A DNA stretch of 40,000 nt. It comes from an uncultured Solirubrobacterales bacterium. Lineage in GTDB: Bacteria > Actinomycetota > Thermoleophilia > Solirubrobacterales > Solirubrobacteraceae. Of the stretch, positions 4,938-30,533 are shown one piece after another. Position numbers and translations under genes: made by a program. The stretch lies in contig OY969817.1 of assembly GCA_963703395.1 (NCBI GenBank), positions 1,673,702 through 1,713,701 of the forward strand, given 5' to 3'. How positions within the stretch are numbered: position 1 is the stretch's first letter; every line of letters starts with the position of its first letter. The notes under the pieces are model-generated. The model had not been told where the DNA came from. It ran no database searches and saw only the letters and a list, made by a program, of their open reading frames with translations.

Positions 4938-4952
4938 CTCGATCGCCATTTC

Positions 4953-5125: not shown

Positions 5126-5153
5126 TTGACTTCTACAAGCTTTGGTTTATACT
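5126..5153 (+). promoter_or_regulatory. sigma-70-like promoter for the toxin-antitoxin operon
   Basis: TTGACT (5126-5131), a 16-nt spacer, then TATACT (5148-5153). The in-frame GTG at 5160 lies 6 nt after the -10, implying a leaderless or near-leaderless mRNA. Confidence 0.5.
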
Positions 5154-5159
5154 CGCAGG

Positions 5160-5941: not shown

Positions 5942-5972
5942 CACGGATCGAGCAGGTCCGCGAGAAAAATCT

Positions 5973-7484
5973 GTAAGCGTTCAGTTGGTTTGGCCGCTTA
6001 TGTGAGGAGTGGTATTGGGTCGCTCCGCGCGTGGGCGTGGAGGGCGTCGGTGAGGTAGGCGAACAGGGAGCGTTTCTGTAGCCGGCAGGTTGTGTGCGCG
6101 GAGAGGAGCCGCGCGGTGCGCTGCTCGCCGTTCTCGGACTGGCTGCCGAGCGATAGCTTGCGGTAGATGACCGCGCTGCGGAGGGCGCGCTCGGCGTGGT
6201 TGTTGGTCGGCTCGATACCGTCGTGCTTGGCGAACGTCCATAGTGCTGGCCAGGCTTTGAGGAGGTTGCGCGCCATGCCGCGGCAGCGCTTGTTGCGCGC
6301 TCGTTTTGACGCGTAGCGCGTGATGATCGGCTTGAACTCGCGTTGAAGCCGGCGGACGGTCAGCTTCAACGCTCGACGCTCGCCGGTGTGTTGGAAGACC
6401 TCCCAAGCCCAGAAGACGCGCTCACAGAGGGCGAGCCCGTGCTCGCCGAACTCCTTCTCGGCTGCCAAGCCTTCGGCGTGCGCGGCGAAATCTCGCTTCA
6501 GATGCGCCCAGCAGAGCTGACGGCGCGCCAAGGGCAGGTGCGTATAGGCCCACCAGCGATCGGAGGTGATGATCGCCTTGGTGTCGGCCAACAGGCTCTT
6601 GGCGTGATCCTCGTGACGGTCTGGGGCGATGTGTAGGTAGGCATGTCGAGGATCGAAGATGCCCCACAGCGCGCGGCGCTGCCCGGCGGTTCGCCAGCCC
6701 GTCTCGTCCATGTTCACCGCGCCTGAGCCGCGAAGCTTGCAGAGCAGATCGGCGTGTGGGCCGCAGAGCGCTGCGCCCGCACGGTCGATGATCGCGTCCA
6801 CCGCGCCCGTGCTGATCCGTGAAGCGAACAGCTCTTCTGCGAACTCCACGACATCGCGGCGGGAGATTCGGTTGCGCACCGAGAGCGTGGTCACGGCGGC
6901 CTGCAAGCGCGGGCCGAACGCGCTCTGGGCAACCTCGGCTCGCAGCGCTGCCCGCGCTTGCGCTCCGCAGCCAGGACAGCGCACGCGTTGGCATTGATAC
7001 TCAGTCACCGTCACCGTGATCCTCGGCAGCTCCTCGACCTGCCAGCGCACCGGATCACCCGCCGCCACACGCTCATCCTCGGTGAAGGCGTGGCCGCAAC
7101 CACAGCGCGCCGGCCAATACTCGATCACCCGATCCACCGCACAGACCGGCAACAGCTCCCGGCCGTGGCCCTCGTGACCGGGCTGGGCGCCCTGCTTGCG
7201 ACCCGAAGGATCCTTGCCGCGTCTGCAAGGACCACCCGGCGGATCTGAGCTCGGCGGAGCCGAGAAATTACGCGAGCTGCGATTCAGCCTACGCTCAAGC
7301 TGGGCAATCCGCTCATCCTGGCGCGCCACGCGCGCCGTCAACGCCTGGATCTGGGCGTCCATCCGCAGAAGCACCTCGACGACCGCCTCACGACCAGCGT
7401 CATAAATCGCCTCCGCCTCAACCCGCTCCACACTCCCAGATTCGACACGCCCGAGCTATGTCCCCCAACCAACTGAACGCTTAC
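5973..7484 (-). mobile_element. IS66-family insertion sequence (single-ORF type), apparently intact
   Basis: Perfect 18-bp terminal inverted repeats: gtaagcgttcagttggtt at 5973-5990 and its reverse complement at 7467-7484. GTAAGCG is the canonical IS66-family terminus. aaaatc is present just outside both ends (5966-5971 and 7486-7491). Confidence 0.9.
5998..7431 (-). CDS. IS66 family transposase
   Basis: 477-aa ORF with an N-terminal leucine-zipper-like coiled coil (QALTARVARQDERIAQLERRL) and a Cys-rich zinc-ribbon region (CGCGH...CPGCG). The DDE core includes the VNMDETGW motif. Confidence 0.92.
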   Translation of the reverse strand: MERVEAEAIYDAGREAVVEVLLRMDAQIQALTARVARQDERIAQLERRLNRSSRNFSAPPSSDPPGGPCRRGKDPSGRKQGAQPGHEGHGRELLPVCAVDRVIEYWPARCGCGHAFTEDERVAAGDPVRWQVEELPRITVTVTEYQCQRVRCPGCGAQARAALRAEVAQSAFGPRLQAAVTTLSVRNRISRRDVVEFAEELFASRISTGAVDAIIDRAGAALCGPHADLLCKLRGSGAVNMDETGWRTAGQRRALWGIFDPRHAYLHIAPDRHEDHAKSLLADTKAIITSDRWWAYTHLPLARRQLCWAHLKRDFAAHAEGLAAEKEFGEHGLALCERVFWAWEVFQHTGERRALKLTVRRLQREFKPIITRYASKRARNKRCRGMARNLLKAWPALWTFAKHDGIEPTNNHAERALRSAVIYRKLSLGSQSENGEQRTARLLSAHTTCRLQKRSLFAYLTDALHAHARSDPIPLLT

Positions 7485-7501
7485 CAAAATCCACCAATTT
7501 G

Positions 7502-7558
7502 CAGGTACTTCTCATCGGGGAGACAGGATTCGAACCTGCGACCGCCCGGCCCCCAGCC
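7502..7558 (-). repeat. tRNA-Pro(GGG) 3'-half fragment plus 13-nt flank (att-like direct repeat, copy 2)
   Basis: Positions 7515-7558 match the 3' 44 nt of the intact tRNA-Pro (21872-21915) at 42/44. The two differences form a compensatory T-stem pair flip. No 5' half is present. It lies 58 bp from the stop of the integrase pseudogene. Confidence 0.78.
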
Positions 7559-7616
7559 CGCGCGATACCGTGCGGCTGGGTCCTAAACCCCCGTGATTAC
7601 TGGCCCCGAGTGTAGC

Positions 7617-8470
7617 TCAGTTGCTCTCGTTTTCGCTCAATTTGCTCCCCGGATTGTTCCCCGTCGCGTCGGTAGGGCCGCCCGGGGCCTCCACCTCGAC
7701 CGTCGTCTCGGGGCACTCGCCCGTCCCCGCTCGAGCGCGCGGATCGGCCGCTTGAAGATCGTCTTCAGGCTCGCCAGCCGGGTCGGGGGCGAAGGCGTCG
7801 TTGACGACCTGGACCTCGTGCTCTGAGGGAGCGTAGTGCGAGTAGATCTGGGTCGTCTCGCTGTCGGCGTGCCCCATGAACTCCTGGATCAGCCGTAGGG
7901 CTGCCGGGAGGCGGCGAGGCGGGTCGCGAAGGTATGGCGTAGGTCGTGGAACTTGATGACCTGCACGCTGGCGTCCCCGCAGGCGGTCTGGAAGCGCTTC
8001 GTGACCTTCGTTCGGTCGAGGGATTGCCGGTCTGCGGATGGCCGAACACTAGGTCGCGTTCGGCGCGATACGCGGTGCGCTTTGACCAGCGGTCGAGCTC
8101 GCCGGCCAGCCGGTCGGCCATCGGCACCGATCGCTCCGTGGAGAGGTCGGACTTCCCGTCGCCGGAATGCTCACCGCGGACATAGGTGTTGCGCTCGCGG
8201 ATTCGCTGCGCGACCCAATCGACATCTCGCCACCGCAGACCGAGCAGCTCGGATTGGCGCAGTCCGGTCATCGCCGCGGTGACGACACGACCCATAGGAC
8301 TGGCCCGAGGACGTCGGGCGGTGGCGGTGGTGCTGGCCCTCGGCGCCCGCGCCTGGTGGGCTTCGGCTTGCGGATGACGATCCCATCGGGGATTGCTCGC
8401 AGCACAGCTTCGAGCTCGGCGACCGTCAGGAACTGCAGGTCTGGGTCGGCGTCCCCAGCACGTTGAGGGC
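7617..8470 (-). pseudogene. tyrosine recombinase/integrase, frameshifted and 5'-truncated
   Basis: Catalytic-domain pieces lie in different frames. They are FLTVAELEAVLRAIPD, then TGLRQSELLGLRWRDVD...LVFGHPQTGNP, then KFHDLRHTFATRLAA, then LIQEFMGHADSETTQIYSHY (the R, HxxR and H..Y residues). At least three frameshifts are needed, and the N-terminal region is replaced by an IS110 fragment. Confidence 0.8.
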
Positions 8471-8577
8471 CCGGACGGGTCGCCTCACTCACCGGGTGGA
8501 CTTCGAGCGAGCATCGAAAGCGCTTCGGCGCGCGAACTGAACCCGTGCGGGTGCACCCACATGCCCACCTCACCGCC

Positions 8578-8856
8578 GGTGGTCGCCAACGCTCAGGATG
8601 TGCGGGCGATCTCTCACGCGCGGGTGAAGTCAGACCGCTTCGATGCGCGCACGCTCGCGGACCTGCTCGCGGCCGGGATGCTCGAACCGGTGTGGGTCCC
8701 CGACGCGGAGACCTCGGCGCTACGTCGCCGGGTAGCTCGGCGCGCGGCACTGGTGCGCCAGCGTACCCGCGCGAAGAACGAGATCCACGCGACGCTCTCA
8801 CGCTGCCTGCTCGGGCACCCACCCGTCTCGGACCTGTTCGGCAAGGAAGGGCGCCG
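8578..8856 (+). pseudogene. IS110-family transposase internal fragment (remnant)
   Basis: VVANAQDVRAISHARVKSDRFDARTLADLLAAGMLEPVWVPDAETSALRRRVARRAALVRQRTRAKNEIHATLSRCLLGHPPVSDLFGKEG matches the conserved middle of IS110 (DEDD) transposases. The N-terminal catalytic start and the C-terminal half are absent. Confidence 0.7.
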
Positions 8857-8954
8857 CGATAGATCGGCAAGACATGGGTCTCGCGCTCTAGCGGGACGAC
8901 TCAATGGCAGAGCCCCGGCAGACGCAACACATCACAACCCAGGCACTATCTTAT

Positions 8955-10461
8955 TAGTACTTTGTTAGGCTGATTGTGGCTGTTTCACTCATCTTGTGGC
9001 GGGTGGCGCAAGGGTAGGTTGGCGAGGTCTATCGGCTGGCGGCAGGTGTGGCAGTGTCCGGCCCAGCAGTCGAAGATGGGCTCGAGCAGGCGGACTGCTT
9101 GGGGGAGTGTGAGGTCCGCCGCCGGGCTTTTGGGTTCTGCCGCTCCAGGGTGAGGAAGGCGTGCGCGGCGGTGACGAGCGCGGTGTGGTGGTACCAGCCG
9201 AGCCAGGAGCGTCCCTCGTAGTGGTCGAGGCCGAGCTCGCCCTTGAGTTGCTTGTAGTCGAGCTCGATCATCCAGCGCAGCCTGGCTAGGCGCGCGAGGC
9301 GCTCGGGCTTGGTGTCGGCGGGGAGGTTTGAGATCCAGTAGTCGCCGGGAGCGTCGCGGCCCGCGGGCCACTCGATGATCAGCCACTCCTCGCGGGGTGC
9401 CTCGTTGTCGCGGGTGACCGGGTGCGCGGCGGTGACGCGCTTGAAGGCGAAGCGCGAGCGGACCCGCTGCTTGCCTTTGCCGCGGAAAGTGACGATGCGG
9501 AAGTCCTCGTCTGCGAGCGAGCGCGCGTACTGCTCGACCGAGACCGGCTTGCCCTCCGCGCGCAGCTTGCGTGACGCTGGCCCTCTGGCGCCCCGCCGGC
9601 GCTCGGGCACGGCAAAGACCGTACCCGCCTGGAAGATGGTCATATCGGGGTCGATCGAAAGCATGTAGTCGAACCCGCCGCCGTTCAGCGCGGTGCGCAG
9701 CCCAGTGTTCTCGCCGTAGGCCGCGTCGCCGAGCACCGGCGCGCGGTCGATCGCAAACGTGGCGGCGCGCTCGATCAACGCCTGCCCGAGCTGCGGCTTG
9801 GTCTGAAAGACGACGTGCTCGGGGACCTTGGCCTTGCGGCGGCGTTCGGGGTCATCACACCAATCCTCGGGCATATACAGATCCCAGCCCAACGGCAGCG
9901 TCGCGTGCTCGGAGACGGCGTGCAGCGAAACCCCGATCTGGCAGTTGCCGATCTTGCCGAGCGTGCCCGAGTACTGGCGCTTGACCCCCGGGGAGCGCTT
10001 GCCGTCCTTGGGGAACCCCGTGTCGTCCAGCACCCACGCCTCAGCGTCAACGACCGGCGCGACGCACTCGACGACCGCCTGCATCACACGCTCCGGGTCC
10101 CACGGGCTGTCGGCCAGAAACTGCTGCAGGCTCTGATAGTCGGCCTCGCCCGCCAGGCGCTCGACCAGCGGTTCAAGCGATTTACGCGGGCCGGCATGCA
10201 ACAGGCCACGCACGTAGCGCTCAGCGTTCTCGCGCTGGACCGGGTGATCCATCGACGCCAGCGCCACCCCGCCCACGAACTCCTCCAAGCGCTCCTTCAC
10301 CGCCCCCGCCAAGAAGGACACCGGGACGCCTTCCTGCGACACCGGCACAGCCTCCTCCATCATCACAGCAGACATATCCGCCCTCCCGCATCGAGTATCA
10401 ACGATGCAGGAAGTGTTCGCCACGCAACGAACAATACCTACAACAGCCTAACAAAGTACTA
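8955..10461 (-). mobile_element. IS701-family (IS4-like DDE) insertion sequence, apparently intact
   Basis: Terminal inverted repeats: tagtactttgttaggctg at 8955-8972 and its reverse complement at 10444-10461 (18/18), with further partial matches inward. It is flanked by a 4-bp direct repeat TTAT (8951-8954 and 10462-10465). Confidence 0.85.
9029..10423 (-). CDS. IS701 family transposase (DDE)
   Basis: 464-aa ORF with the typical IS701 N-terminus (ERYVRGLLHAGPRKSLEPLVERL...YQSLQQFLADSPWDPERV). It also has WVLDDTGFPKDGKRSPGVKRQYSGTLGKIGNCQIGVSL and a C-terminal YKQLKGELGLDHYEGRSWLGWYHH. Confidence 0.88.
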   Translation of the reverse strand: MANTSCIVDTRCGRADMSAVMMEEAVPVSQEGVPVSFLAGAVKERLEEFVGGVALASMDHPVQRENAERYVRGLLHAGPRKSLEPLVERLAGEADYQSLQQFLADSPWDPERVMQAVVECVAPVVDAEAWVLDDTGFPKDGKRSPGVKRQYSGTLGKIGNCQIGVSLHAVSEHATLPLGWDLYMPEDWCDDPERRRKAKVPEHVVFQTKPQLGQALIERAATFAIDRAPVLGDAAYGENTGLRTALNGGGFDYMLSIDPDMTIFQAGTVFAVPERRRGARGPASRKLRAEGKPVSVEQYARSLADEDFRIVTFRGKGKQRVRSRFAFKRVTAAHPVTRDNEAPREEWLIIEWPAGRDAPGDYWISNLPADTKPERLARLARLRWMIELDYKQLKGELGLDHYEGRSWLGWYHHTALVTAAHAFLTLERQNPKARRRTSHSPKQSACSSPSSTAGPDTATPAASR

Positions 10462-13400
10462 TTATGGCACCGCCCACGGCGCGCAGGCACCGTATTCGTT
10501 CTTCCCCCACGTGCTGAACTTGTACTGAGAACCCCAGTACGGGACATAGCTCTCACAGCCAACCGCAAAGTTAGCATTGTAGTTGGGAAGCGGTGCCCTC
10601 GGATTCGAGAGCGTCCCCAATCCGGTGGGAGCAAAGCTTTGCCAGCTACCTCCGTATTGGACTCTCGGAGCGCGGAACGTCAGAGGTTTCTCATACGTCC
10701 CTGGAGCGGTGTCATCTTCGCGGTGAGTCTCTGCCCCGGCGAGATCGGCATCTCCGAACGATGTGTTCGCCGGCAGATAGTAGATCCACAAACATTGGCC
10801 GCCCATTCGTGCTTCCACTTCGAGGCGACGTTTACGTCGAGTGTACCCCTGATATTGTTCGTATTCTGCCTTCTTGCCTTGTTTAACCACCCATGGACAT
10901 GCTTTGTCATAGCCCTTTGGTTGAATCCCCTTGGATTCGACCGCAAATTTGACTGGCGAGGAAGGGACTTGGCCGAGGGCAAAGATCTCGATAGAGCCCG
11001 GTTCGGGAGGGCTGTTTTGGAACTGAACTTGCTGGTATTCGATTAGGCCATCGTTTTCGCTTTTTGGCGCATTAAGATTGGTTCCGCGGACCTCAACGAA
11101 GGGGTTGTCCGTGCCGTCAGAGTTGTAGAAGACGCCCGCTTGCACGAAGACATACGGCGATTCATTCTGAAGCATGACCCACGATGAGGTGGGATAGCCC
11201 GGACTACGACAGAGAGACGCTGGACCCAGGAATGCGCGCACACCAGTAAACGTGTTTGGATGTTGTTCAGGGAATTCATCGATGACGGCGTCAAAACCCC
11301 CGCCGCCGTTAGAAGATGGGCAGCTGTGGTTCTCGTAGTTGACGTTGGGATCGGCGGTCTGTGAGATTTCCTGGATGAGGCCAGCGGTACCGGCGGAGGT
11401 TTCGCCGACGGCCCAACACGACGCGTGCGCGTGACAGGAGATCGCGAAAAGTTGACTGGCCGCAGGCACAGCTTCGTGACTTCCAGCGGTGACCGCAAAT
11501 ACACCTTGATTGAAGCTCGCGTTCTCCCCGACGGCCAGACAGGTCGCTTCGGCAACGCACGATATGCCTTTGAGGTAGCCCGAGACAGGCGGGATTATAT
11601 ATTCAGGTTTGGGGGGCGTCGTACGGAAGACCGTGGTTGGGGGTATCCCGTCAGTCACGGGCACGATGATCGTAGAGCCTGGAGTTTTTGTAGTGCCTGT
11701 CGCATCACACGAAACGCTGTTGAAGCAATCCACCGCCGACAGGCTCTCGGTTTCGCCGATGGTGTAAACAGTGTGGGACAGGGTCGCCCGCTGAATATCC
11801 ACAACTACACCTTCGGGTACGTGATTGTTGCCAACAGCCACACACGTGTTGCGGCAGGTCACGCCATGCAGATCCGATACTTGCTTGTGGCCGTTGCCAC
11901 TTAGATCGTGGGCGCCTCCTACTACCCCGTTGGTGATCGGCACCGCGATTCCCTGGGCCGCACCTCCACCCGCACCTTCGCCGGTGCCAACCGCCAGACA
12001 CGCCCCTGCGTTGTGACACGCAACTCCCTCGAGCGCGATCACGCTCGGAACAACCCGTGCTTTGCCTGGGGATCCGTTCATAATCGGCACCACGATCCCT
12101 TTAGCGGTGGAAGTGTTGCCGACCGCGAAGCACGAGGCGGACGTTTCGCAGGCGACCGCATATAGGTGAGTGCTGCCGGGCACGCTCATTGCTTTGCTGG
12201 GAAGCCCGTTCGATACCCCCACGACGACGCCTTCACCCGTCGGGGAGTTTCCGACGGCCACGCATGAGCGTTCCCCGGTACACGCGATCCCGTCGAGGAG
12301 CTTCACATCACTGGACACGTGGACCCCGGTCAGTCCCGCTTGGACGACGGGATGATCCAGAACGTGTTTCCCATTGATGATACTGCTGACCGTGTAGTAC
12401 GCCTGGCTCTCGGCGGCGGCTCCCGAGATGTATGCATCGGTCGAGCCGGCGGGCAGCCTCGTGATCGTCTGCGTGGAGCTTGGGCTGGCGAGGACCGCTT
12501 CGGGACTGACCGGAAATGGTGTGTCGAGCGTGGGCGTGGAGAAGACCTCGTAGCCTTCCGCGTTTGGGTCCTGTTCCCAGTGGATGTGGACGCTAGTTGA
12601 AGCCTGGTTGGTCGCGGTGAGCGCGTACAGTGGCGGTGGTGACATTTGTTCGATGCCTGCGCCCGGGGTGATTGCCTCACCTGCAAACGTCGCACTCGAA
12701 AGCGCTGGTTTGAACGTTGATTCGCTTGCGCCGTCAGGCACGAGGACGTAGGTGCCGCCGAACGTGTCGCCGGGCGCGAGTTCGGCGAACGTAACGGTGA
12801 ACTTCTGGTCGGGCTGGAAAATAAAGTGTTCGTGAGTGTTTTCGTCGATCGTGACGGCGACGTTGTAGAGGGGGACGTTGGCTTCGTTTCTCACGCCGAT
12901 GCGAACGTTGTACGGCACGCCCGCGTGCAGGGCGCCTTCGTCGGCGTAGACCTTGAGCGACAGGGCTTCCACGCCCCAGACGCGCAGGGGCTGCGCGAGT
13001 TCGGCGTGCAGGTCCACCGGGGCTTCGATAATGTTGAGCTTGCCATGGTAGTCGGCTGAGAGGTAGTAGTTGCCGGGGGTGTCGCCGCGGATGACCCAGT
13101 TCACGGTCTTGCTGCCGAGGCCCGGCACGTCTTCGACCGTCTGCGTTTCCTGCTGCGGCGTCGAGGTCGGTGCGAGGCTGATGCCTGGTGGCAGGTGGAG
13201 ACTCGCGCTGCCCGCGGTGAGCTTGAACGGTTCCGGGGAGAGGTTCTGGATCACCATGCTCACTTCGAAGAACTGCTTGAGTACGGTCGCCTTGCCGCGG
13301 AGGATCAGCCACTGGATCAACGGGTGACCGCCGATGAAGGCCGGCACGACGACGATGCCGCCGCCCTCGCACTCGTTGGGCGAGCATGTCCAACCGCCTC

Positions 13401-16400
13401 CGCCCCCGACAGCTCCGCCGCTCGGACCGACGAACTCGCCGCTGTTGTTGATGTAGCCGTGGAGCGTGGCGGGCGGCGTGCCTTCGATGAACGCGAGACG
13501 AACTTCGAATTCGTACACGTGCTGGTTGGCGGGGTCGTTGACGTTGATGCCAGCGGCTTCGATTTCCTTGAGGTTCAGTTCGTGGGACTTCAGCGTACTC
13601 GTGGCGACTTCACCGCTCACGAGCGTCAGGGTCGTGGTCCCGGCTCCCCCGGTGACGACCACATTCCCGACCAGCGGCCGGTATCCGCTCTCGTACGCGT
13701 AGACGGTGTCGGTGCCGTCCGGCAGGCCTTCGAGCGCCGCTTCACCTTCGGTGCCCGTCGTCGCCTGGACGCGCGTGCCGCCGGAGCCGACGTACAGCAC
13801 GGTCGCGCCAGCGATCGGGTGCCCTTCGTGGTCGACGGTCTTGATTTTGACGTTGTGTGCGGCCGGCGCCGACACGGTTACAGAGATGGATTGGTGGGCG
13901 GTTTCGGTGCCGCGTGAGACCGTCAAGGTCGCCGTGTATGATCCGGCGGCGGCGTACGTGTGGACCGGGCTCTTTTCGGTGCTCGTCGAGCCATCCCCGA
14001 ATTCCCAGTTGTAGTGTTCGATTTCGCTCGCGGGGGAGCTTCCGCTGCCGTCGAACACCACCGGCGCGCCGACGGTCGCGGTGAGGTTTTCACCGGCTGC
14101 CGCGTGCAGCGGGATGGGAACGACGACCGCGGTGGGAACTGAGGGCGCCGCGGGGCTTTCTCCGCCTGCGTTAACTGCGGTCTCTTCTATGCGAAGGGTG
14201 TGTCCAACATCGGCCATGGTCGGCTGGTAGGTCTCGTTGAGGGCACCGGTGATGAGCGCGCATTCTTCGCCAGCGCTGTTGCACCGCACCCACCGGTAGG
14301 TGTATGCGGTCGGTTCGTTCGTCCACGCGCCGTGCGACTCGACCAGCGTCTGGCCCTTTTCGGCGCTGCCGGCGATCTTGGGCGCGGTCAGGTTCACCGG
14401 GACTGCGATGGTCACCGCCGCGGTGGCGGCCGACGGTGCCGGCAGGCTCGCGCCCCCTGCGTTTTCCGCGGTTTCTTCGACTCTGATCGTGTGGCCGACG
14501 TCCTGTAGGGTCGGTGCGTAAGTTTCGCCCTGCGCCCCTGAGATAGCGCTACAGCTCATCCCGACGCTGTCGCACTGCACCCACTGCAGCTTGGTTTTGG
14601 TCGGAGTGTGTTCCCAGGTCCCGGCCTGGGATGTCAGCGTCTTGCCCTCTTGCGCAGTCCCGGTGACGGTCGGCGGCGCGATGTTGACAGGGGGCAACGG
14701 CAGCACAACCGAGGTGGCCGCCGATTCGGCGGGCTTGGAGGATCCGCCCTTGTTGATTGCGACCTCTTCAACGCGGATCGTGTGCCCAACATCCGACGTG
14801 ACCAGAACGTAGGTTTCGCCAGTCGCCATGGAGATAGCGGAGCATTCGCCGCCGGATTCGTTGCAGCGCAGCCACCGATGTTCGAACTGCTGCGGTTCGT
14901 TCGTCCAGCCGCCGTCTTCGACAGTCAGCGTCTGACCTTCCTTCGCAACCCCGGAGATTTTCGGTGGCGTAGTCTCTTCGGGTACGTGTGGGGTGACGGC
15001 CGCTGTCGCAGCGCTGAGCGCCGCCGCTCCCGCTCCGCCTGCGTTGACTGCGGTCTCTTCGACCTTGAGCTTTTCGCCGACGTCAGCCTTGGTGGGCGTG
15101 TATGTCTGCGAGGTGGCCCCTTCGATCGGCAGGCAGCCTTCGCCCAGGCTGTTACAGCGCAACCACTGCAGTTTGTAGCTCGTTGGCGTGTACTTCCAGG
15201 TGCCGTGTTCCTCGGTCAGCGTATGGCCCTGCTGGGGACTGCCGTTGATCGTCGGCGCGGTTTCGTCGACAGGTTCGTGCGGGAGAACTTCCGCGGTCGC
15301 TCCGGAGGTCGCCAGCTTGGATTCTCCGGTTTTGTTGATCGCCGACTCTTCGACCTTGAGCTTGTGACCGACGTCGGCTTCGCCCGGGACGTAAGTCGGT
15401 TCCGTGGCGCCGGTGATCTTTTCGTTGCATTCGGTTCCGGAGCTGTTGCACCGCAGCCACTGCAGCTTGTAGCTCGTAATCGGTTCGTTGGTCCAGGTGC
15501 CATGTTCCTCGGTCAGGATCTTGCCCTGCTGGGCGGTTCCCGAGATCTTCGGCGGGGTTATTTCTTCGGGCACGCCGACATAGGTGTAGTGGTCAGCTTC
15601 GCTCGTCGCGCTGGTCCCGCCGGGCGTTGTCACCGTCACATCAACCTGACCGCCCGCATGCGCGGGGCTTTCCGCCGTGATTTCGGTCGCCGTGTTCGTC
15701 TTGATCGTCGCGGAAGCAGCACTGAAGTGAACCGCGGTGGCACCTTCGAGGGCGGTGCCGATGATCGTCACGAGGGTGCCGCCAGCGGTAGTACCGCCGG
15801 CGGGGGAGACTTTGGTCACCGCCGGCATCGGCGGTGCTGCGGTAAACCTGAATTGTGAGCTGTGCGCCGTTCCAGAGCCATTGACGGCGACGAGCTCGAC
15901 GCAATATTCGTTGCCCGCGCTGAGTCCAGGCAGTTCGACCGAGACCTGGTGGAACGCCGCGTCCGTGAAGCCAAGGGTCGCAGGTGTGGTCAAGTGCGCG
16001 GGCGAGCCGGCGAGACCTTCGCTCGCGCACCATTCGGAGCTGGCCAGGTCGTAAGCGACGTGGTACTGAGTCGCCTGGCCGGAGGGATTGACTTGCCCTT
16101 CGACCATCGCGGTCGTCGCGCCGGTCGCGAACGCGTTCGAGGTGGATGCGGCTGGGAATCCGGCAAAGAACGTGACCTGCGAGCCGTGCGCGATTCCAGA
16201 GCCATTGACGGCGATGAGCTCGGCGCAGTATTCGTTGCCTGCGCTGAGTCCAGTAAGTTCGACTGAGACCTGGTGGGACGTGGCATCCGTGAAGCCCAGC
16301 GTCACCGGTGTGGTCGAGTGCGCCGGTGAGCCCGCGAGGCCACCGCTCGTGCACCATTCAGAGCTCGCCAGGTCATAGGCGACGTGATATTCGGTCGTCT

Positions 16401-18867
16401 GGCCGGACGGGTTGACCTCGCCTGCGACCATCGCCGTCGTAGCGCCGATGGCGAACGCGTTTGACGTGGATGCGGACGGGAGGCCGGAGAAGAAGAATTC
16501 AGCGGAGCCATGTCCCGTGCCTGAGCCATTGACGGCGATCAGTTCGGCGCAGTATTCGTTGCCTGCGCTGAGTCCAGTAAGTTCGACTGAGACCTGGTGG
16601 GACGTGGCATCCGTGAAGCCCAGCGTCACCGGTGTGGTCGAGTGCACCGGTGAGCCCGCGAGGCCACCGCTCGTGCACCATTCAGAGCTCGCCAGATCAT
16701 AGGCGACGTGATATTCGGTCGTCTGGCCGGACGGGTTGACCTCGCCTGCGACCGTCGCCGTCGTCGCTCCGGTCGACTGAGGGCCAAACGCGAAGGCCGA
16801 CGGTGCGCCCGCGGTGAACGACTGCGGGAATCCTTCTGAAGTCCCCGAACCATTGACCGCGATGAGCTCGACGCAGTATTCGCTACCGCCTGTCAAGGCG
16901 GTCAGTTCTACCGAGACTTGGTGGAACGTCGCATCCGTGAAGCCCAGCGTCACCGGCGACGTCGAGTGCGCCGGTGAGCCCGCGAGGCCACCGCTCGTGC
17001 ACCATTCAGAGCTCGCCAGATCATAGGCGACGTGATACTGGGTCGTCTGGCCGGAGGAATTGACCTCGCCTCCGACCGTCGCCGTCGTCGCACCGGTTGA
17101 CTGCGGGCCAAACGCGAAGGCTGACGGTGCGCCCGCGGTGAAGGACTGCTGGAACCCCGCCGATGTGCCAGAGGCGTTGACGGCGATGAGCTCCTCGCAG
17201 TATTCGCTGCCAGCCGTCAGGCCGGTCAGTTCCACCAACACCTGGTGGAACGTCGCGTCCGTGAAGCCCAGCGTCACCGGTGCAGTTGAATGCGCCGGCG
17301 AGCTCGCAAGCCCTCGGCTCGTGCACCATTCAGAGCTCGCCCGGTCATATGCGACGTGATATTGGGTCGATTGGCCGGAGGGGTTGACCTCGCCTCCGAC
17401 CGTCGCCGTCGTCGTTCCGGTCGACTGTGGGCCAAAAGCGAAGGCCGAGGGCGCGCCAGCGGTGAACGTCTGTGTGAACCCAGACGAGGTCCCCGAGCCG
17501 TTGGCCGCGATGAGCTCCTCGCAGTATTCGCTGCCGCCAGTCAGGCCGCTGAGACCAACCGAGACGGGGTGAAACTTGGCCGCCGTGGAGCCGAGGGTCA
17601 GGAGGGACGTGGCGTGCGTCGGTGAGCCTTTGGACCCATAGCTCGTGCACCATTCAGAGCTCGCCAGGTCATAGGCGACGTGGTATTGGGTGGATTGGCC
17701 GGCGGGATTGACTTCGCCGTTGACCAGCTCGGTGGTCGAGGCGATCGCGCTGGAGCCACGCGCTTCGACCGAGGGCGCTCCGGCGGTGAACGTCTGTGTG
17801 AACCCAGACGAGGTCCCCGAGCCGTTGGCCGCGATGAGCTCCTCGCAGTATTCGCTGCCGCCAGTCAGGCCGCTGAGACCAACCGAGACGGGGTGAAACT
17901 TGGCCGCTGTGGAGCCGAGGGTCAGGAGGGACGTGGCGTGCGTCGGTGACCCTTTGGAGCCATAGCTGGTGCACCATTCCGAACTCGCCAGGTCATAGGC
18001 GACGTGATACTGGGTCGATTGGCCGGCGGGATTGACTTCGCCGCTGACAAGCTCGGTGGTCGACGCGATCGCGCGGGAGCCGAAGGCGTTGACAGACGGG
18101 GTTCCCGCAGTGAACGTCTGCGTGAATCCAGATGAGGTCCCGGAGCCGTTGGCCGCGATGAGCCCCTCGCAGTATTCGCTGCCAGCCGCCAGGCCGCTGA
18201 GACCAACCGAGACGCGGCGAAACTTCGGGGCCGTGGAGCCAAGGGTCACCAGGGACGTTGAGTGGCCCGGTGAGCCTTTGGACCCATGGCTCGCGCACCA
18301 TTCAGAGCTCGCCAGGTCATAGGCGACGTGGTATTGGGTGGATTGGCCGGCGGGATTGACTTCGCCTTCGACGAGCTCGTTTGTCGAGGTGGTCGCGCGG
18401 GGGCCAAAGGTCCTGACCGACGGCGTCCCCGCGGTGAAGGACTGCTGGAATCCCGCCGACGTGCCAGAGCCGTTGGCCGCGATCAGCTCCTCGCAGTACG
18501 TGCTGCCGGCCGTCAGCCCGCTCACCCCGACCGACACCTGCCGGTATGTGGCGGCCGTGGAGCCGAGGGTCACCGGTGACGTCGAGTGCGCCGGTGAGCC
18601 TTTGGAGCCATGGCTGGTGCACCATTCCGAGCTCGCAAGGTCATAGGCAACGTGGTATTGGGTGGATTCGCCGCCGGGGTTGACCGAGCCTTCCACTATC
18701 GCCGTGGTAGCGCTGGTCGAGAAGGCGTTGAAGGTGGAGGCCGACGGGATCGAGGCTTGCGCTAAGGCCGACAGCGCAAGAGTCCAGCACACGATCGCGA
18801 CAAGAACGGCAAGACCGGCCCTGAAGCGCCACGTGCGGCTGGCCCACGAGGCAAGCACAATGGCCAT
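10462..18867 (-). CDS. giant secreted multi-repeat surface protein (adhesin-like), ~2800 aa
   Basis: Start chosen at ATG 18865-18867, giving the signal peptide MAIVLASWASRTWRFRAGLAVLVAIVCWTLALSALAQA. The N-terminal half, read from the translation, is 9 x 108-aa FN3-like repeats (VNPxGQxTxYHVAYD..WC..YC) followed by IPT/TIG (VTKVSPAGGTTAGGTLVTIIG). Next come 5 x ~97-aa two-Cys Ig-like repeats (LQWLRC..G..C..I.GAT..TY....DVGH.L.VEE) and a PKD domain (WEFGDGS...HTY..AGSYTATLTV). The C-terminal half has a CarboxypepD_reg-like domain, CARDB-like sandwiches, an FN3, 7 Cys-pair repeats and a ~300-aa orphan C-terminal domain. Confidence 0.85.
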   Translation of the reverse strand: MAIVLASWASRTWRFRAGLAVLVAIVCWTLALSALAQASIPSASTFNAFSTSATTAIVEGSVNPGGESTQYHVAYDLASSEWCTSHGSKGSPAHSTSPVTLGSTAATYRQVSVGVSGLTAGSTYCEELIAANGSGTSAGFQQSFTAGTPSVRTFGPRATTSTNELVEGEVNPAGQSTQYHVAYDLASSEWCASHGSKGSPGHSTSLVTLGSTAPKFRRVSVGLSGLAAGSEYCEGLIAANGSGTSSGFTQTFTAGTPSVNAFGSRAIASTTELVSGEVNPAGQSTQYHVAYDLASSEWCTSYGSKGSPTHATSLLTLGSTAAKFHPVSVGLSGLTGGSEYCEELIAANGSGTSSGFTQTFTAGAPSVEARGSSAIASTTELVNGEVNPAGQSTQYHVAYDLASSEWCTSYGSKGSPTHATSLLTLGSTAAKFHPVSVGLSGLTGGSEYCEELIAANGSGTSSGFTQTFTAGAPSAFAFGPQSTGTTTATVGGEVNPSGQSTQYHVAYDRASSEWCTSRGLASSPAHSTAPVTLGFTDATFHQVLVELTGLTAGSEYCEELIAVNASGTSAGFQQSFTAGAPSAFAFGPQSTGATTATVGGEVNSSGQTTQYHVAYDLASSEWCTSGGLAGSPAHSTSPVTLGFTDATFHQVSVELTALTGGSEYCVELIAVNGSGTSEGFPQSFTAGAPSAFAFGPQSTGATTATVAGEVNPSGQTTEYHVAYDLASSEWCTSGGLAGSPVHSTTPVTLGFTDATSHQVSVELTGLSAGNEYCAELIAVNGSGTGHGSAEFFFSGLPSASTSNAFAIGATTAMVAGEVNPSGQTTEYHVAYDLASSEWCTSGGLAGSPAHSTTPVTLGFTDATSHQVSVELTGLSAGNEYCAELIAVNGSGIAHGSQVTFFAGFPAASTSNAFATGATTAMVEGQVNPSGQATQYHVAYDLASSEWCASEGLAGSPAHLTTPATLGFTDAAFHQVSVELPGLSAGNEYCVELVAVNGSGTAHSSQFRFTAAPPMPAVTKVSPAGGTTAGGTLVTIIGTALEGATAVHFSAASATIKTNTATEITAESPAHAGGQVDVTVTTPGGTSATSEADHYTYVGVPEEITPPKISGTAQQGKILTEEHGTWTNEPITSYKLQWLRCNSSGTECNEKITGATEPTYVPGEADVGHKLKVEESAINKTGESKLATSGATAEVLPHEPVDETAPTINGSPQQGHTLTEEHGTWKYTPTSYKLQWLRCNSLGEGCLPIEGATSQTYTPTKADVGEKLKVEETAVNAGGAGAAALSAATAAVTPHVPEETTPPKISGVAKEGQTLTVEDGGWTNEPQQFEHRWLRCNESGGECSAISMATGETYVLVTSDVGHTIRVEEVAINKGGSSKPAESAATSVVLPLPPVNIAPPTVTGTAQEGKTLTSQAGTWEHTPTKTKLQWVQCDSVGMSCSAISGAQGETYAPTLQDVGHTIRVEETAENAGGASLPAPSAATAAVTIAVPVNLTAPKIAGSAEKGQTLVESHGAWTNEPTAYTYRWVRCNSAGEECALITGALNETYQPTMADVGHTLRIEETAVNAGGESPAAPSVPTAVVVPIPLHAAAGENLTATVGAPVVFDGSGSSPASEIEHYNWEFGDGSTSTEKSPVHTYAAAGSYTATLTVSRGTETAHQSISVTVSAPAAHNVKIKTVDHEGHPIAGATVLYVGSGGTRVQATTGTEGEAALEGLPDGTDTVYAYESGYRPLVGNVVVTGGAGTTTLTLVSGEVATSTLKSHELNLKEIEAAGINVNDPANQHVYEFEVRLAFIEGTPPATLHGYINNSGEFVGPSGGAVGGGGGWTCSPNECEGGGIVVVPAFIGGHPLIQWLILRGKATVLKQFFEVSMVIQNLSPEPFKLTAGSASLHLPPGISLAPTSTPQQETQTVEDVPGLGSKTVNWVIRGDTPGNYYLSADYHGKLNIIEAPVDLHAELAQPLRVWGVEALSLKVYADEGALHAGVPYNVRIGVRNEANVPLYNVAVTIDENTHEHFIFQPDQKFTVTFAELAPGDTFGGTYVLVPDGASESTFKPALSSATFAGEAITPGAGIEQMSPPPLYALTATNQASTSVHIHWEQDPNAEGYEVFSTPTLDTPFPVSPEAVLASPSSTQTITRLPAGSTDAYISGAAAESQAYYTVSSIINGKHVLDHPVVQAGLTGVHVSSDVKLLDGIACTGERSCVAVGNSPTGEGVVVGVSNGLPSKAMSVPGSTHLYAVACETSASCFAVGNTSTAKGIVVPIMNGSPGKARVVPSVIALEGVACHNAGACLAVGTGEGAGGGAAQGIAVPITNGVVGGAHDLSGNGHKQVSDLHGVTCRNTCVAVGNNHVPEGVVVDIQRATLSHTVYTIGETESLSAVDCFNSVSCDATGTTKTPGSTIIVPVTDGIPPTTVFRTTPPKPEYIIPPVSGYLKGISCVAEATCLAVGENASFNQGVFAVTAGSHEAVPAASQLFAISCHAHASCWAVGETSAGTAGLIQEISQTADPNVNYENHSCPSSNGGGGFDAVIDEFPEQHPNTFTGVRAFLGPASLCRSPGYPTSSWVMLQNESPYVFVQAGVFYNSDGTDNPFVEVRGTNLNAPKSENDGLIEYQQVQFQNSPPEPGSIEIFALGQVPSSPVKFAVESKGIQPKGYDKACPWVVKQGKKAEYEQYQGYTRRKRRLEVEARMGGQCLWIYYLPANTSFGDADLAGAETHREDDTAPGTYEKPLTFRAPRVQYGGSWQSFAPTGLGTLSNPRAPLPNYNANFAVGCESYVPYWGSQYKFSTWGKNEYGACAPWAVP
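11365..12310 (-). repeat. seven divergent ~40-55-aa Cys-pair repeats (propeller-blade-like) inside the giant gene
   Basis: The units start LDGIAC, LYAVAC, LEGVAC, LHGVTC, LSAVDC, LKGISC and LFAISC. Each has the form L..(I/V).C.....C.A(V)G......G(I/V)VV(P/G)(I/V).NG. Confidence 0.6.
14110..15565 (-). repeat. five tandem ~290-bp repeats (93-100 aa two-Cys Ig-like units) inside the giant gene
   Basis: Five units each contain G.TL....G.W...P..Y..(Q/R)W(L/V)(R/Q)C...G..C..I.GA...TY.P...DVGH.(L/I)(K/R)(V/I)EE.A.N..G. They are divergent at the DNA level. Confidence 0.8.
15840..18750 (-). repeat. nine in-frame tandem repeats of 324 bp (108 aa) inside the giant gene
   Basis: A 324-bp period is visible in the DNA; for example, 17461-17583 is repeated exactly at 17785-17907. 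Antisense shadow ORFs also start 324 bp apart (16088/16412, 17060/17384). The boundaries given are approximate. Confidence 0.9.
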
Positions 18868-19117
18868 CGCGGCACAACGAACCGCCGCTCGTCGCGCCTG
18901 TGGCCCTTCGCGGATGTTCGCTGCTGCGGCCGTAGCCCCCCGCTCTCGCGTCCTGCGGCTCCATCCTCCGGGACGCTTCTCCCCGGTGCCGCTATTCGGG
19001 CGCGACCCTATCAGGTCAGACAAACTCAACGACGACGCCCGGAGACTGGCAGTGGATCACACCCGACGTGCCAGGGTTGTGGGCGTGCACAACGGTCCGC
19101 GGTAGACGAACAGCTCA

Positions 19118-19525
19118 ATGCGGGAGCCCTCTTCGCCGAGGGACTGCGTCGCTTACACGCAGATGTTCGCATCCCGAGGGGCACGCTTGAGAGCGCTTCT
19201 ACGTCATCGAGGGACCGTGTGGGAAAGTTCGCTGCAGCGTGCGATGCTGACGCACGGCTTTGCGAAGGCCGAAGTGCGGAAGGCATTCGCCGCTCGCCCG
19301 ACGAGCATCCATGGCTTCGATCTTGTGCGGTCACTAGCGATACCGGCCCCACAGCCGGCATTCACACGCTACTACGACATGCTGGAGATCAACGATGTCA
19401 TGACGCTCGTCAATGAGCTCGCAAGGCTCCGCTGCGGGGCGCCATGGGTCGCTGGAGGCACACGAGCGCTTCGCGGCCCCGCTCGATCATCCTGGCTCCG
19501 CTGGTGGTTCTCGTCGGCCTGCTGA
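19118..19525 (+). CDS. hypothetical protein (weak call)
   Basis: 135-aa ORF divergent from the giant gene. Third-position GC is visibly lower than in neighbouring genes and no motif was recognised. It may be non-coding. Confidence 0.25.
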   Translation: MREPSSPRDCVAYTQMFASRGARLRALLRHRGTVWESSLQRAMLTHGFAKAEVRKAFAARPTSIHGFDLVRSLAIPAPQPAFTRYYDMLEINDVMTLVNELARLRCGAPWVAGGTRALRGPARSSWLRWWFSSAC

Positions 19526-19806
19526 TAACGGTTGCCTCGGCCGGTGCCTTTAGTGTTGACTCTAATTAGCTGACGGGCTCGCGGTCATCGCCGCTACCGC
19601 TGGATCACCAGCCGATTCGCCCCACCCGGTGCGCCATCGCCGCCGGGAAGCGGTTCCCCCGCCCGCTCGCGGACACGCCGCAAGCAGTTCGGGTATCACT
19701 TGTTGTTCCCGGTAGCAGCGCCCGCAACCCTAAAACCCGCAAACAGCGCCAACTCTCTGGCGGTCATGCCGTGCGCAGGCGCTCGACTGTCCGCCACGGG
19801 CGACGC

Positions 19807-20270
19807 TCACCGATACGCTTGCTCGCCGAGCAATGCGAGCGCCAGCCAGCCGCGGGGTCGCACTTGCGCAATGGACGACGAGCAGGGCGCCCTCGTCTCG
19901 CACGCCCGACACCTGCTTCGCGGTGGTCGCGGTACTCGACCATGCCGGCCGTGGCGCTGCCGGTCGACCCCGGCGATATCCGTGTCGACGCTGTGCGCGA
20001 TCGCTATCGCCTCTCCGCGCTCGGTCCGGACCACGCTGTCGGCTTGCTGGCCGAGCGCGCCGCGCAGCTGCGCGAGTGCGTTACGGAGGCTGGCGCGCGC
20101 GCTGTCCTCGCGCACATCAGGCCACAGCCGGCCAGCTCGCTGCGGCCGTGCGCTCGGCGCTCGAGCGCGAGCATCGCTAGGAGCAACCTCGCCTTGCGGC
20201 TGGCCGGCAGTTCGACGTCCCGCCCGTCGATTTCGAGCCGAAGCTCGCCCAGCAGGTTGAACCGCACCAT
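19807..20270 (-). pseudogene. SARP/BTAD-type winged-helix transcriptional regulator, frameshifted and truncated
   Basis: MVRFNLLGELRLEIDGRDVELPASRKARLLLAMLALERRAHGRSELAG continues in another frame as LWPDVREDSARASLRNALAQLRGALG...VDTDIAGVDR. This is the OmpR/SARP-type N-terminal DNA-binding domain. No BTAD, ATPase or TPR part follows. Confidence 0.6.
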
Positions 20271-20409
20271 GGCAGCGAATCTACTCGGCCGAGCGCCGCG
20301 ATCGAGCGCACGGGTCTTTGCGCGCCCCCATGTTTGCTCATGCGTCGCCGTTCCATGCGAGCCAGCGCGAGCATGATCTTCATGCCGAACTCGCCGAACG
20401 GCGTCGGCC

Positions 20410-21594
20410 CTACTGCAGCGACTCGAGTGGGTGGTGACGTCTGATGTAGTCGCCGAAGAGGGGTGCCGTGAAGTTGACGTAGCCGCGTCGGGGGCTGTAG
20501 ATGAGACCCTTGAGGTCGATCAGGTTCTGGCGCACGAGCGCGGTGCGGCGCTGGTCGGCGCCGAGCAGCGCTGACACCTTCGCGGTCTGCTGCGACCCAT
20601 CGCCGAGCTCGGCAATCGCGGCCAGGTAGCGGCGCTCAGCCGCGGTCGCGCGGTTGAAACGTGCTCGGTGAAAGCCGCTGTCGAGCTGCTCTTGAGCGAT
20701 CGTGTCGGCAGCTTTGGCATCGTGGTCGGTGATCGGCGAGCTGGCCGCGACCAGCCAGGCGTAGCGCCCGTAAGTCTGCAGAAAGAACGGGTAGCGGTCA
20801 GCTCGAGCGAGGATGAAGTCGAGTGCGGCCTGCTCGTACTCGACGCCCTCGCGCTCAGCGGGGAGCGTGAGCGCAGTTCGGGCGGCGTCCTCGGTGAGCC
20901 GACCGATCTCGACGTACTGGAAGAGGCGCTCCGCATAGGAGCTTGCCTCAACGAGCCTGCCTGGGAGCTGTGGCAGTCCAGCGCAGACGAGCGCCACGGG
21001 AAGCTGACGCTGAGCGATGCGATGGAAGGCCGCGAGCAGCGCCTGCAGGTCCTCCTTCTCGGCGAACTGCATCTCGTCGAAGAAGAATGCTATGCCGCCC
21101 TCAGCCTCGCGGGCTGTCTCGCCAAGCTCGACCAGGACATCCTGGAGATCGACATCGAGCTGCCCGCTGTCACCGCGTCCAGGAGTCGGGGCGACATCGA
21201 CCTTGAACGTGATCCCAGCGGGCATAGCTGTCACCGAGAAGCTGCTGATGACCGACAGCGACCTGCGCAGCCGCTCCCGGACACTCTCCCGCCGTGCAAG
21301 CGACTGCGCGGCCTGCGCTGCCACCTGAGCAAGCGCTGGACGCAGCGGTCCACGGCCGCGCAGCTCGATGTAGCCCGAGCCCCATCCGGCCTCTTCGGCC
21401 TCCGCAGCGAAGCGGTTCAGTAGGACCGTCTTGCCGACGCCGCGAAGCCCCCACAGCGCAAGGTTCTGCTCAGGACGCCCGGCAGCAAGACGCTTGAGCA
21501 GCACACCGAAACTCGTCTGCTCTCCATCGCGACCTGCAAGCTCCGGTGGTGGCGTACCGGCGCCTGGTGCGTAGGGATTGAGGACCTCGTCCAC
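20410..21594 (-). CDS. AAA+ ATPase (archaeal-ATPase/COG1672-like) with C-terminal winged-helix
   Basis: N-terminal NPYAPGAGTPPPELAGRDGE, Walker A GLRGVGKTVLLNRF and Walker B IAFFFDEMQ. The C-terminal winged-helix-like region reads AERRYLAAIAELGDGSQQTAKVSALLG...LIDLKGLIYSPRRGYVNFTAPLFGDYIRR. GTG start at 21592-21594, with TATACT 6 nt upstream. Confidence 0.85.
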   Translation of the reverse strand: MDEVLNPYAPGAGTPPPELAGRDGEQTSFGVLLKRLAAGRPEQNLALWGLRGVGKTVLLNRFAAEAEEAGWGSGYIELRGRGPLRPALAQVAAQAAQSLARRESVRERLRRSLSVISSFSVTAMPAGITFKVDVAPTPGRGDSGQLDVDLQDVLVELGETAREAEGGIAFFFDEMQFAEKEDLQALLAAFHRIAQRQLPVALVCAGLPQLPGRLVEASSYAERLFQYVEIGRLTEDAARTALTLPAEREGVEYEQAALDFILARADRYPFFLQTYGRYAWLVAASSPITDHDAKAADTIAQEQLDSGFHRARFNRATAAERRYLAAIAELGDGSQQTAKVSALLGADQRRTALVRQNLIDLKGLIYSPRRGYVNFTAPLFGDYIRRHHPLESLQ

Positions 21595-21871
21595 ACCACG
21601 AGTATATAGCTTTATATGGCTGTATTTGCTCAGGGCATAAAGTCAAATAATCCCGTGCCGATGCGGCCTCCGAACTGCTGGCCGGAGCCGTTCGCTCCGG
21701 AGGGCCAGAGATTTGAGAAAGGCCATCGCAACCCCTGGCTTGGTCGCCGGCCAGCGTGGCAGGCAATCGCCATGCTTTGCAAGTTCTCCGAGAAATTGTT
21801 CCCCGTGGGGGGCCTTTCTTTCTCGAGGAGCTAACCGCAGTTTTTGGCTCTATTACTTGCTTTTCCTGTAG

Positions 21872-21945
21872 TCGGGGAGACTGGATTCGAACCAGCGACC
21901 GCCCGGCCCCCAGCCGGGTGCGCTACCAGACTGCGCCACTCCCCG
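21872..21945 (-). tRNA. tRNA-Pro (anticodon GGG)
   Basis: Hand-folded cloverleaf: CGGGGAG TG GCGC AGTCTGGTA GCGC A CCCGG CTGGGGG CCGGG CGGTC GCTGG TTCGAAT CCAGT CTCCCCG A. It is 74 nt and CCA is not encoded. Confidence 0.9.
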
Positions 21946-30524: not shown

Positions 30525-30533
30525 GAGTGGCAT

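Follow-up and report, generated by a model that had tools for sequence, protein, structure and literature searches.

We identified a giant, putatively Sec-exported exoprotein encoded on a tRNA-linked genomic island of an uncultured Solirubrobacterales bacterium, within a 40,000-nucleotide stretch of contig OY969817.1 (assembly GCA_963703395.1, positions 1,673,702 to 1,713,701 of the forward strand; hereafter the window, numbered from its first letter). Judged from its sequence and from those of its homologues, the protein seems to be less a dedicated adhesin than one allele of an exoprotein family whose members swap heads. Our preferred reading, to which we assign a probability of about one half, is that the protein is a Sec-exported rod that presents a lectin-like beta-propeller and an all-beta end domain, together the head, to an extracellular polymer, and that it is either retained non-covalently or released. 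Actinobacteria of the order Solirubrobacterales abound in soil and have almost all escaped cultivation; a search for literature on their surface proteins found nothing relevant, and we know of no account of the way in which they interact with particles, polymers or neighbours. The family suggests that these bacteria build very large exoproteins on a clade-typical adaptor and that the heads are interchanged, with enzymes, RHS toxins and domains of no known family as the alternatives. The three sequence families outside Pfam that we delimited, a 335-amino acid (aa) adaptor, a C-x5-C-x-A-V-G propeller blade and a 296-aa end domain, could now be taken up in structural work and in screens for activity or for binding to glycans; the contribution of the work is descriptive and hypothesis-generating, and no principle is overturned.

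Gene and module architecture

The open reading frame (ORF) of the giant gene occupies 10462–18867 on the minus strand and runs for 2,801 codons from an ATG without an internal stop codon. The frame is open further upstream, to a TTG at 19029, and we preferred the ATG as the start because the hydrophobic signal sequence begins there. This N-terminal signal, MAIVLASWASRTWRFRAGLAVLVAIVCWTLALSALAQA, with cleavage predicted directly before SIPS, is the sole segment with high Kyte-Doolittle hydrophobicity in the protein (aa 15–40). The mature chain of ∼2,760 residues is strongly acidic, with 244 Asp+Glu as compared with 114 Lys+Arg. An independent metagenome assembly (L001, protein P0001) is colinear with the gene across 8,573 nt at 94% DNA identity by blastn; in L001, too, the repeats number nine and the frame is open. 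Because L001 is colinear and has the same number of repeats, collapse or expansion of the repeats during assembly, which an earlier note made from the sequence alone had named among the findings that would refute its description of the gene, is very unlikely.

It is in our view very improbable that the gene arose as an artefact of assembly or that it is a dead product of repeat expansion or collapse. Although the gene is repetitive (nine 324-bp and five ∼291-bp units) and lies among insertion sequence (IS) elements, and although a further copy in the assembly L038 is fragmented, the nine units are just 64–93% identical to one another in pairwise DNA comparisons, with a longest exact common run of 125 bp, and the G+C content at third codon positions (GC3) is coding-like over the whole gene. 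In addition, the IS insertion at the 3′ end duplicates the stop codon, so that the frame stays intact. We conclude, as far as sequence can tell, that the gene is intact and encodes a Sec-exported exoprotein of a Solirubrobacterales bacterium, which agrees with the view of the earlier note that a single uninterrupted ORF encodes a secreted mosaic protein.

The modules upstream of the adaptor (Table 1) were called by a Pfam scan of the whole protein. Pfam fn3 scored 76.9 bits on the whole protein but only 14.7 bits on a lone repeat of the FN3-like array, for which TRF gave a period of 324 and 8.6 copies and a separate repeat search gave nine copies of 324 bp. IG_AIR9 matched the following Ig-like region in five stretches (103 bits) and SCAB-Ig matched the same region (86 bits), and the underlying DNA repeats with a period of 291–297. 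The scan therefore confirmed the fn3, TIG, five Ig-like and PKD domains that had been proposed from the sequence alone. The proposed CarboxypepD_reg domain was borderline by score; the family (PF13620) is listed in precomputed annotations of homologues, and an AlphaFold2 model of this segment (model residues 1–80) was confident, with predicted local distance difference test (pLDDT) values >90.

Downstream of these modules, residues 1751–2801 had no Pfam, NCBIfam or PDB sequence match besides weak fn3 and MG4 hints. The adaptor and the second FN3-like domain that begin this region match, as a pair, a segment present in more than 50 proteins (55 matches; 40–72% identity), nearly all from Solirubrobacterales metagenome-assembled genomes (MAGs). 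The FN3-like domain itself was found by blastp in 50 family members, and the pair comes after CarboxypepD_reg in nearly all homologues, usually with PKD as well. An AlphaFold2 model of the adaptor, built on a 46-sequence alignment, was an all-beta chain of sandwich domains (pLDDT 88.8, predicted TM-score 0.78). Thus, the "CARDB-like sandwiches" of the earlier note were correct as to fold class, but no Pfam model supports them beyond the hints mentioned above. The R-G-D at 13081–13089 (aa 1927–1929) lies within a W-x-x-R-G-D that is invariant or nearly so over the 46 adaptor sequences; RGD is the classical integrin-binding tripeptide, and in the adaptor it is probably structural.

Of the 51 cysteines in the protein, one belongs to the signal peptide; the other 50 make up 25 pairs at regular spacing in the mature chain, and these pairs are presumably disulfide-bonded. 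The regular pairing had been recognized previously, but the claim that nearly every module carries a Cys pair was overstated: the TIG, PKD, CarboxypepD_reg and second FN3 modules, like two of the adaptor's three sandwiches, are free of cysteine. Sec-exported proteins of aerobic Actinobacteria carry even numbers of cysteines indicative of disulfide formation (PMC2823432). Because of this habit, and because homologues place the gene in Solirubrobacterales, a disulfide-stapled exoprotein is ordinary for the phylum, which contradicts the suggestion that such a stalk would be unusual for a bacterial adhesin. With respect to anchoring, LP.TG occurs nowhere in the protein, the chain ends in ...GACAPWAVP without a C-terminal hydrophobic helix, and sequence inspection together with Pfam and NCBIfam scans revealed no lipobox, SLH, LysM or other wall-binding domain. 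The earlier observation that no recognizable anchor is present thus stands, as does the puzzle of how the protein would be retained.

The C-terminal head and its probable exchange

The propeller was predicted with confidence by AlphaFold2 (pLDDT mostly >85) as seven groups of ∼four strands, and the model of the propeller together with the end domain had a pLDDT of 79.8. Foldseek matched the propeller to seven-bladed PLL/PHL lectins (PDB 6t96, 6rgr and 5mxh; TMt 0.61–0.66), and also to WD40 proteins and Ycf48; aa 2186–2505 had no Pfam match and the C-x5-C-x-A-V-G blade motif is absent from Pfam. The seven Cys-pair repeats reported in the earlier note are therefore real and, from the AlphaFold2 and Foldseek results, represent the seven blades of a beta-propeller. 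In every blade the first strand carries one cysteine at its end and the second strand carries the other at its start (for blade 1, residues 11 and 17 of the model, in strands 5–13 and 16–22), and this modelled geometry fits a disulfide that would staple the hairpin. The Photorhabdus PLL/PHL lectins, which are among the best structural matches to this region, are likewise seven-bladed and of ∼340 residues; however, they are only 8–10% identical to the propeller in sequence, and the likeness is one of fold. Two-domain Foldseek alignments covering both the propeller and the end domain were obtained with the GH32 fructofuranosidase (PDB 9tdu) and with viral LamG-like jelly-roll or sialidase-like proteins, but with TM-scores of 0.21–0.39 and a large root-mean-square deviation; GH32 has five blades, and no catalytic residues are common to both.

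The end domain, whose modelled strands had pLDDT values of ∼70–94, had been described as an orphan and proved instead to be rare: when 1.84 billion representative proteins were scanned exhaustively with HMMER, only 24 relatives emerged, and a word-indexed profile search returned only four proteins. In these relatives the domain is always at the extreme C-terminus, mostly right after a propeller of the same cysteine type and in one case after a Kelch propeller, with TIG or LamG further upstream. The propeller and end domain also occur as a free-standing unit in proteins of 460–940 aa, several of which have evident N-terminal signal sequences; the gene for one free-standing end-domain protein, P0152, has a monocistronic context. 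All named relatives are annotated as "hypothetical protein" and derive from metagenomes or MAGs, one of them labelled Solirubrobacterales. The alignment identified W58, M60, Q62, Q71, G73, Y76, F85, E87, C152, C187-L-W189, E208, P217-G218 and W282 (domain numbering) as invariant. The end domain lacks any Pfam, NCBIfam or PDB sequence match, its profile matches nothing in the PDB, and a back-translated WVMLQ...QAG pattern run over metagenomes hit 31 loci, none of which encodes the domain, indicating chance matches.

A broader view of the family came from the adaptor. All 35 adaptor-family loci found in contigs from one genome per species belong to Solirubrobacterales or Solirubrobacteraceae MAGs, with two paralogues per contig in two of the genomes, and distant adaptor copies occur elsewhere, as in the Phosphitispora fastidiosa protein P0040, which lists an SLH domain (PF00395). 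The rod before the adaptor ranges from almost nothing to >2,700 residues, and the tails after the FN3, compared in 49 members, represent at least 11 unrelated classes. These classes include a ∼225-aa Cys-containing domain of no known family (18 members), TIG arrays (12 members) and DUF6531, RHS and YD-shell cages (six members), and also SGNH/GDSL esterase, GH5 plus SGNH (P0002), GH30, DUF642 (carried by homologues P0134–P0140) and others. Conserved neighbours of the adaptor-family genes were not found in more than 4 of 37 loci.

Within the adaptor family, the propeller and end-domain head was present in three assemblies only: the window, L001 and L038. Thus, the full architecture does recur, as the earlier note had asked, with an open frame in L001 and split by frameshifts into P0003 and P0142 in L038. 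Identity between the giant protein and its L038 counterpart is 83–94% over the rod, 72% over the adaptor, 47% over the FN3 and 34% and 42% over the head, whereas similarity between the giant gene and P0002 ends inside the FN3. In addition, GC3 is 0.59–0.66 over the head (10465–12265, aa 2201–2800) as compared with 0.74–0.87 over the rest of the gene and 0.77–0.94 in core genes, a drop that suggests an acquisition of the head independent of that of the rod. The variety of tail classes, the identity gradient relative to L038, the P0002 breakpoint in the FN3 and the GC3 drop together point to exchange of C-terminal cassettes by recombination in the adaptor family.

Other members of the family showed further features. 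In L038, four consecutive same-strand gene calls (3264–11491; 381, 1,713, 68 and 496 aa) reflect either frameshift errors of a long-read assembly or a decaying gene. The RHS-headed L040 and L041 consist of CarboxypepD_reg repeats, A9, the adaptor, FN3 and DUF6531, and then an RHS/YD shell. In L002 (18392–21262), the same-strand gene after the GH5/SGNH-headed P0002 encodes a 956-aa GH30 protein and is followed by a 728-aa ORF of no assigned family, a neighbourhood that may be a polysaccharide-degrading cluster.

Possible functions of the exoprotein

In the reading that we prefer, ∼21 beta-sandwiches (nine FN3-like, TIG, five A9, PKD, CarboxypepD_reg, about three adaptor sandwiches and FN3) would form an extended rod with the seven-bladed propeller at its far end, where a Cys pair would staple the first hairpin of each blade; beyond the propeller would lie the rare all-beta domain, in which three pairs of cysteines occur and certain Gln, Glu and aromatic positions are invariant. 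The rod would hold the head tens of nanometres off the producer, or would tether it in a matrix, and the propeller and end domain would bind, and might cleave, an extracellular polymer on particles or other cells. Retention by the cell, if any, would be non-covalent, with either the rod or the adaptor making the contact. Across the family, the adaptor unit of CarboxypepD_reg, about three sandwiches and FN3 is constant, while the C-terminal head appears to be exchanged by recombination; the genes lie in mobile-element-rich DNA. The geometry of the rod, ligand binding or catalysis by the head and the localization of the protein are features that we infer. We favour binding or polymer processing because the head occurs elsewhere as a self-sufficient secreted unit, because it is rich in probable disulfides, which would suit extracellular action, and because its propeller resembles sugar-binding propellers; furthermore, sister heads include GH5, GH30, SGNH and DUF642, and the invariant Gln/Glu/aromatic set of the end domain looks like a carbohydrate or peptide cleft.

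Several observations weigh against this reading. No relative of known function was detectable for the end domain, whose role may be binding, catalysis or toxicity, and the RHS-headed paralogues indicate that the same scaffold also bears toxins. In addition, the Foldseek matches of the adaptor were only generic beta-sandwich strings (teneurin, alpha-2-macroglobulins, BcpA pilin and factor XIII) with TM-scores of at most 0.22. The top match of the adaptor model, teneurin-2 (PDB 6fb3), had a TM-score of only 0.14. The RHS-headed paralogues are ordered as a CarboxypepD_reg/transthyretin-like domain, beta-sandwich/FN and YD shell, and the order in teneurins is transthyretin-like domain, FN-plug, propeller and YD shell; in the giant protein a propeller likewise comes after the FN3, but the Pfam scan found no RHS/YD repeats. 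The likeness to teneurin and bacterial YD-shell proteins is one of domain order, and homology is not demonstrated.

An alternative, proposed in the earlier note, is that the protein is a cell-retained adhesin, a fibrillar stalk by which the cell would attach to particles, to hosts or to neighbouring cells. A long Ig-like array, a terminal lectin-like propeller, a signal peptide and an acidic repetitive rod are typical of fibrillar adhesins, and the SLH domain listed for the distant relative P0040 is consistent with cell retention. This explanation is nonetheless doubtful, given the absence of LPXTG, SLH, lipobox, C-terminal helix and known wall-binding modules from the giant protein, the occurrence of the head in short stalk-free secreted proteins, the minimal family members with almost no rod ahead of the adaptor and the GH5, GH30 and SGNH enzymes borne by sister proteins. 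MSCRAMM-type and giant Gram-positive adhesins likewise have a signal peptide, a long tandem Ig-like/FN3/PKD array and a distinct terminal ligand-binding unit, whereas the giant protein lacks LPXTG or any other anchor, carries its head at the C-terminus rather than the N-terminus, has cysteine-paired domains and has a head that is exchangeable among paralogues. A serious rival, owing to the head swapping and the RHS paralogues, is that the protein is a polymorphic toxin of contact-dependent or diffusible interbacterial competition, in which the rod and adaptor deliver the propeller and end domain as an exchangeable payload. The family resembles polymorphic toxins, including those of the WapA/Rhs type, in its conserved N-terminal scaffold and variable C-termini among close homologues, in its mobile-element contexts and in its six members with DUF6531, RHS and YD-shell heads, and C-terminal diversity made by recombination is a hallmark of such systems (PMC3482391). 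What chiefly distinguishes such systems is a small immunity gene in adjacent position (PMC3482391), but none was found downstream in the window, where the stop codon is followed by the IS and then by an IS110 fragment, in L001, where the next same-strand ORF resembles a transposase fragment (by a motif read by eye), or in L038, where the genes that come next are read from the other strand. Moreover, no neighbour is conserved across the 37 loci, no known toxin domain is present in the giant protein (aa 2186–2801 being unmatched in Pfam and NCBIfam), and its head is not a small toxin domain but a large, disulfide-rich propeller and beta domain, 616 aa with ten cysteine pairs, of an extracellular-type fold that is ill-suited to import into a target cytoplasm. 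Many sister heads are also ordinary hydrolases, CAZyme- (carbohydrate-active enzyme) or esterase-like, and we consider a toxin rather unlikely. We conclude that the giant protein would work like a fibrillar multi-Ig exoprotein or adhesin and that its family evolves like polymorphic toxins, with the defining features of neither.

It is also conceivable, but improbable, that the end domain acts outside the cell as a hydrolase of a new kind, be it a jelly-roll glycosidase or an enzyme like the glutamic peptidases, and that the protein is mainly a nutrient-acquiring enzyme on a spacer. Gln62, Gln71, Glu87, Glu208 and several aromatics are invariant in the end-domain family, sister heads are hydrolases, and the end-domain motifs TSSWVMLQ...FVQAG...PFVE are colinear by eye with WVGIDG...LQTG...YEWYP of peptidase G1 (eqolisin, scytalidoglutamic peptidase; catalytic Gln53/Glu136). 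When SGP and AGP sequences were taken from the PDB and profiles were compared by hhalign, a first comparison gave P = 0.011, but the full-family comparison scored 17.5 (P = 0.11) as compared with 16.8 for a reversed-template control, which is noise level. Profile homology to G1 was thus not detected and we rejected it; similarly, Peptidase_A4 (PF01828) did not match the end domain in Pfam even at E <10, and the end-domain profile found nothing in the PDB. Returning to a rod that presents a polymer-directed head, we would extend this reading only tentatively to an undescribed Sec-dependent "exchangeable-head" system, found mainly in Solirubrobacterales and spread by islands, in which one scaffold would carry RHS toxins, CAZymes or new heads; the propeller and end domain would then be a new glycan- or wall-targeting effector and the adaptor would mediate non-covalent attachment to the envelope. 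To our knowledge, an organization of adaptor plus exchangeable head has not been described for Solirubrobacterales.

The island and its neighbourhood

Table 1. Modules of the giant protein and features of the surrounding island, with positions in the window.
Feature	Position	Strand	Remarks
Signal peptide, aa 1–38	18754–18867	minus	Basic n-region, ∼20-residue hydrophobic core, A-Q-A cleavage motif before SIPS; read from sequence
Nine tandem 108-aa FN3-like repeats, aa 39–1010	15838–18753	minus	W-C...Y-C pair in each, spacing 42 residues
IPT/TIG domain, aa 1015–1096	15580–15825	minus	Pfam PF01833, 48.6 bits
Five A9/SCAB-Ig domains, aa 1100–1585	14113–15570	minus	R/Q-C-x6-C pair in each
PKD domain, aa 1589–1665	13873–14103	minus	Pfam PKD_4 73 bits, PKD 38 bits
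CarboxypepD_reg-like (transthyretin-like) beta-sandwich, aa 1678–1745	13633–13836	minus	Pfam 31.3 bits, just below the cut-off of 32.3 bits
Adaptor, aa 1751–2085 (335 aa)	12613–13617	minus	About three beta-sandwiches, Gly-rich loop with conserved C-x4-C, invariant W..RGD motif
Second FN3-like domain, aa 2086–2185	12313–12612	minus	Always after adaptor; weak Pfam fn3; confident AlphaFold2 strands
Seven-bladed beta-propeller, aa 2186–2505	11353–12312	minus	C-x(4-6)-C per blade across hairpin of first two strands, then A-V-G
All-beta end domain, aa 2506–2801 (296 aa)	10465–11352	minus	Six conserved Cys; rare family
Upstream region moving with giant gene	19029–19562		95.5% identical in L001, homology stops beyond (blastn)
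IS701-like insertion sequence	8952–10464		DDE_5 transposase 9029–10423 (minus), 219.6 bits; 21-nt inverted repeats; TTAT target duplication
Tyrosine-integrase fragment	7765–8295	minus	Phage_integrase 28.8 bits, model positions 32–104 of 172; adjoins distal att (attachment site) repeat
tRNA-Pro(GGG)	21871–21945	minus	ARAGORN; Rfam 62.1 bits; 3′ end toward island, proximal att site
tRNA-Pro 3′-half direct repeat, 44 nt	7515–7558		95% identical to 21872–21915; distal att of 14.3-kb island with giant gene
Third tRNA-Pro 3′-half copy, 44 nt	4966–5009		91% identity; bounds 2.5-kb islet

Besides the integrase fragment and the IS701-like element, the island contains an IS110 fragment, an AAA_16 ATPase and broken regulator ORFs. 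Its GC content is 0.58–0.69, as compared with 0.71–0.76 in the adjoining chromosome, and its flanks encode ordinary metabolic genes. The tRNA-Pro gene and the direct repeats bear out the tRNA-linked island that had been proposed in the earlier note, and the IS elements, the low GC and the integrase, present as a fragment only, would fit it. The islet (5010–7514) contains a HigB/HigA-like (Gp49 + HTH_3) pair at 5142–5941 and an IS66 element at 5973–7484 (DDE_Tnp_IS66) with its own 21-nt inverted repeats, and the three tRNA-Pro 3′-half copies would imply two tandem integrations. Overall, the island looks decayed and invaded by IS elements.

The IS701-like element has landed exactly on the stop codon that ends the giant gene; its TTAT target duplication, which reads ATAA in the coding direction, restores TAA and leaves the ORF intact. 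Beyond this element, 8854–8954 of the window is a 98% match to the L001 DNA directly after its stop codon. Thus, the DNA common to the window and L001 consists of the giant gene, ∼530 bp upstream and 100 bp downstream, beyond which all is different. The region 19029–19562 contained no promoter consensus or Rfam match, and its small ORFs had no Pfam match. In L001, the context includes a relaxase-associated AAA_30 helicase fragment, and P0002 sits among transposases; no tRNA or att repeat was found near the orthologues in L001, L002, L006 and L032. The earlier note had asked whether homologues are also island-borne; L001 and P0002 both lie in mobile contexts. Taken together, these comparisons support the view that the giant gene is island-borne and horizontally mobile.

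Other features of the window were also noted. The AAA_16 ATPase (20410–21594, minus strand) adjoins a short ORF (20004–20270) with an N-terminus resembling that of a SARP/AfsR-type regulator; this ORF has no Pfam match and overlaps other frames, and 20004–21594 probably represents the remains of a large ATPase-regulator gene. Two further long ORFs with coding-like GC3, at 24826–26583 (585 aa, GC3 0.92) and 32147–33355 (402 aa, GC3 0.82), had no Pfam match at E ≤1e-5. A second tyrosine integrase (28966–29946, 57 bits) and a tRNA-Ser(GCT) at 34719–34805 lie in a stretch with a GC content of 0.61–0.68; the tRNA was called by ARAGORN only, as the Rfam run at gathering threshold listed just Pro and Gly tRNAs. 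This stretch (28966–34805) may be another integrated element.

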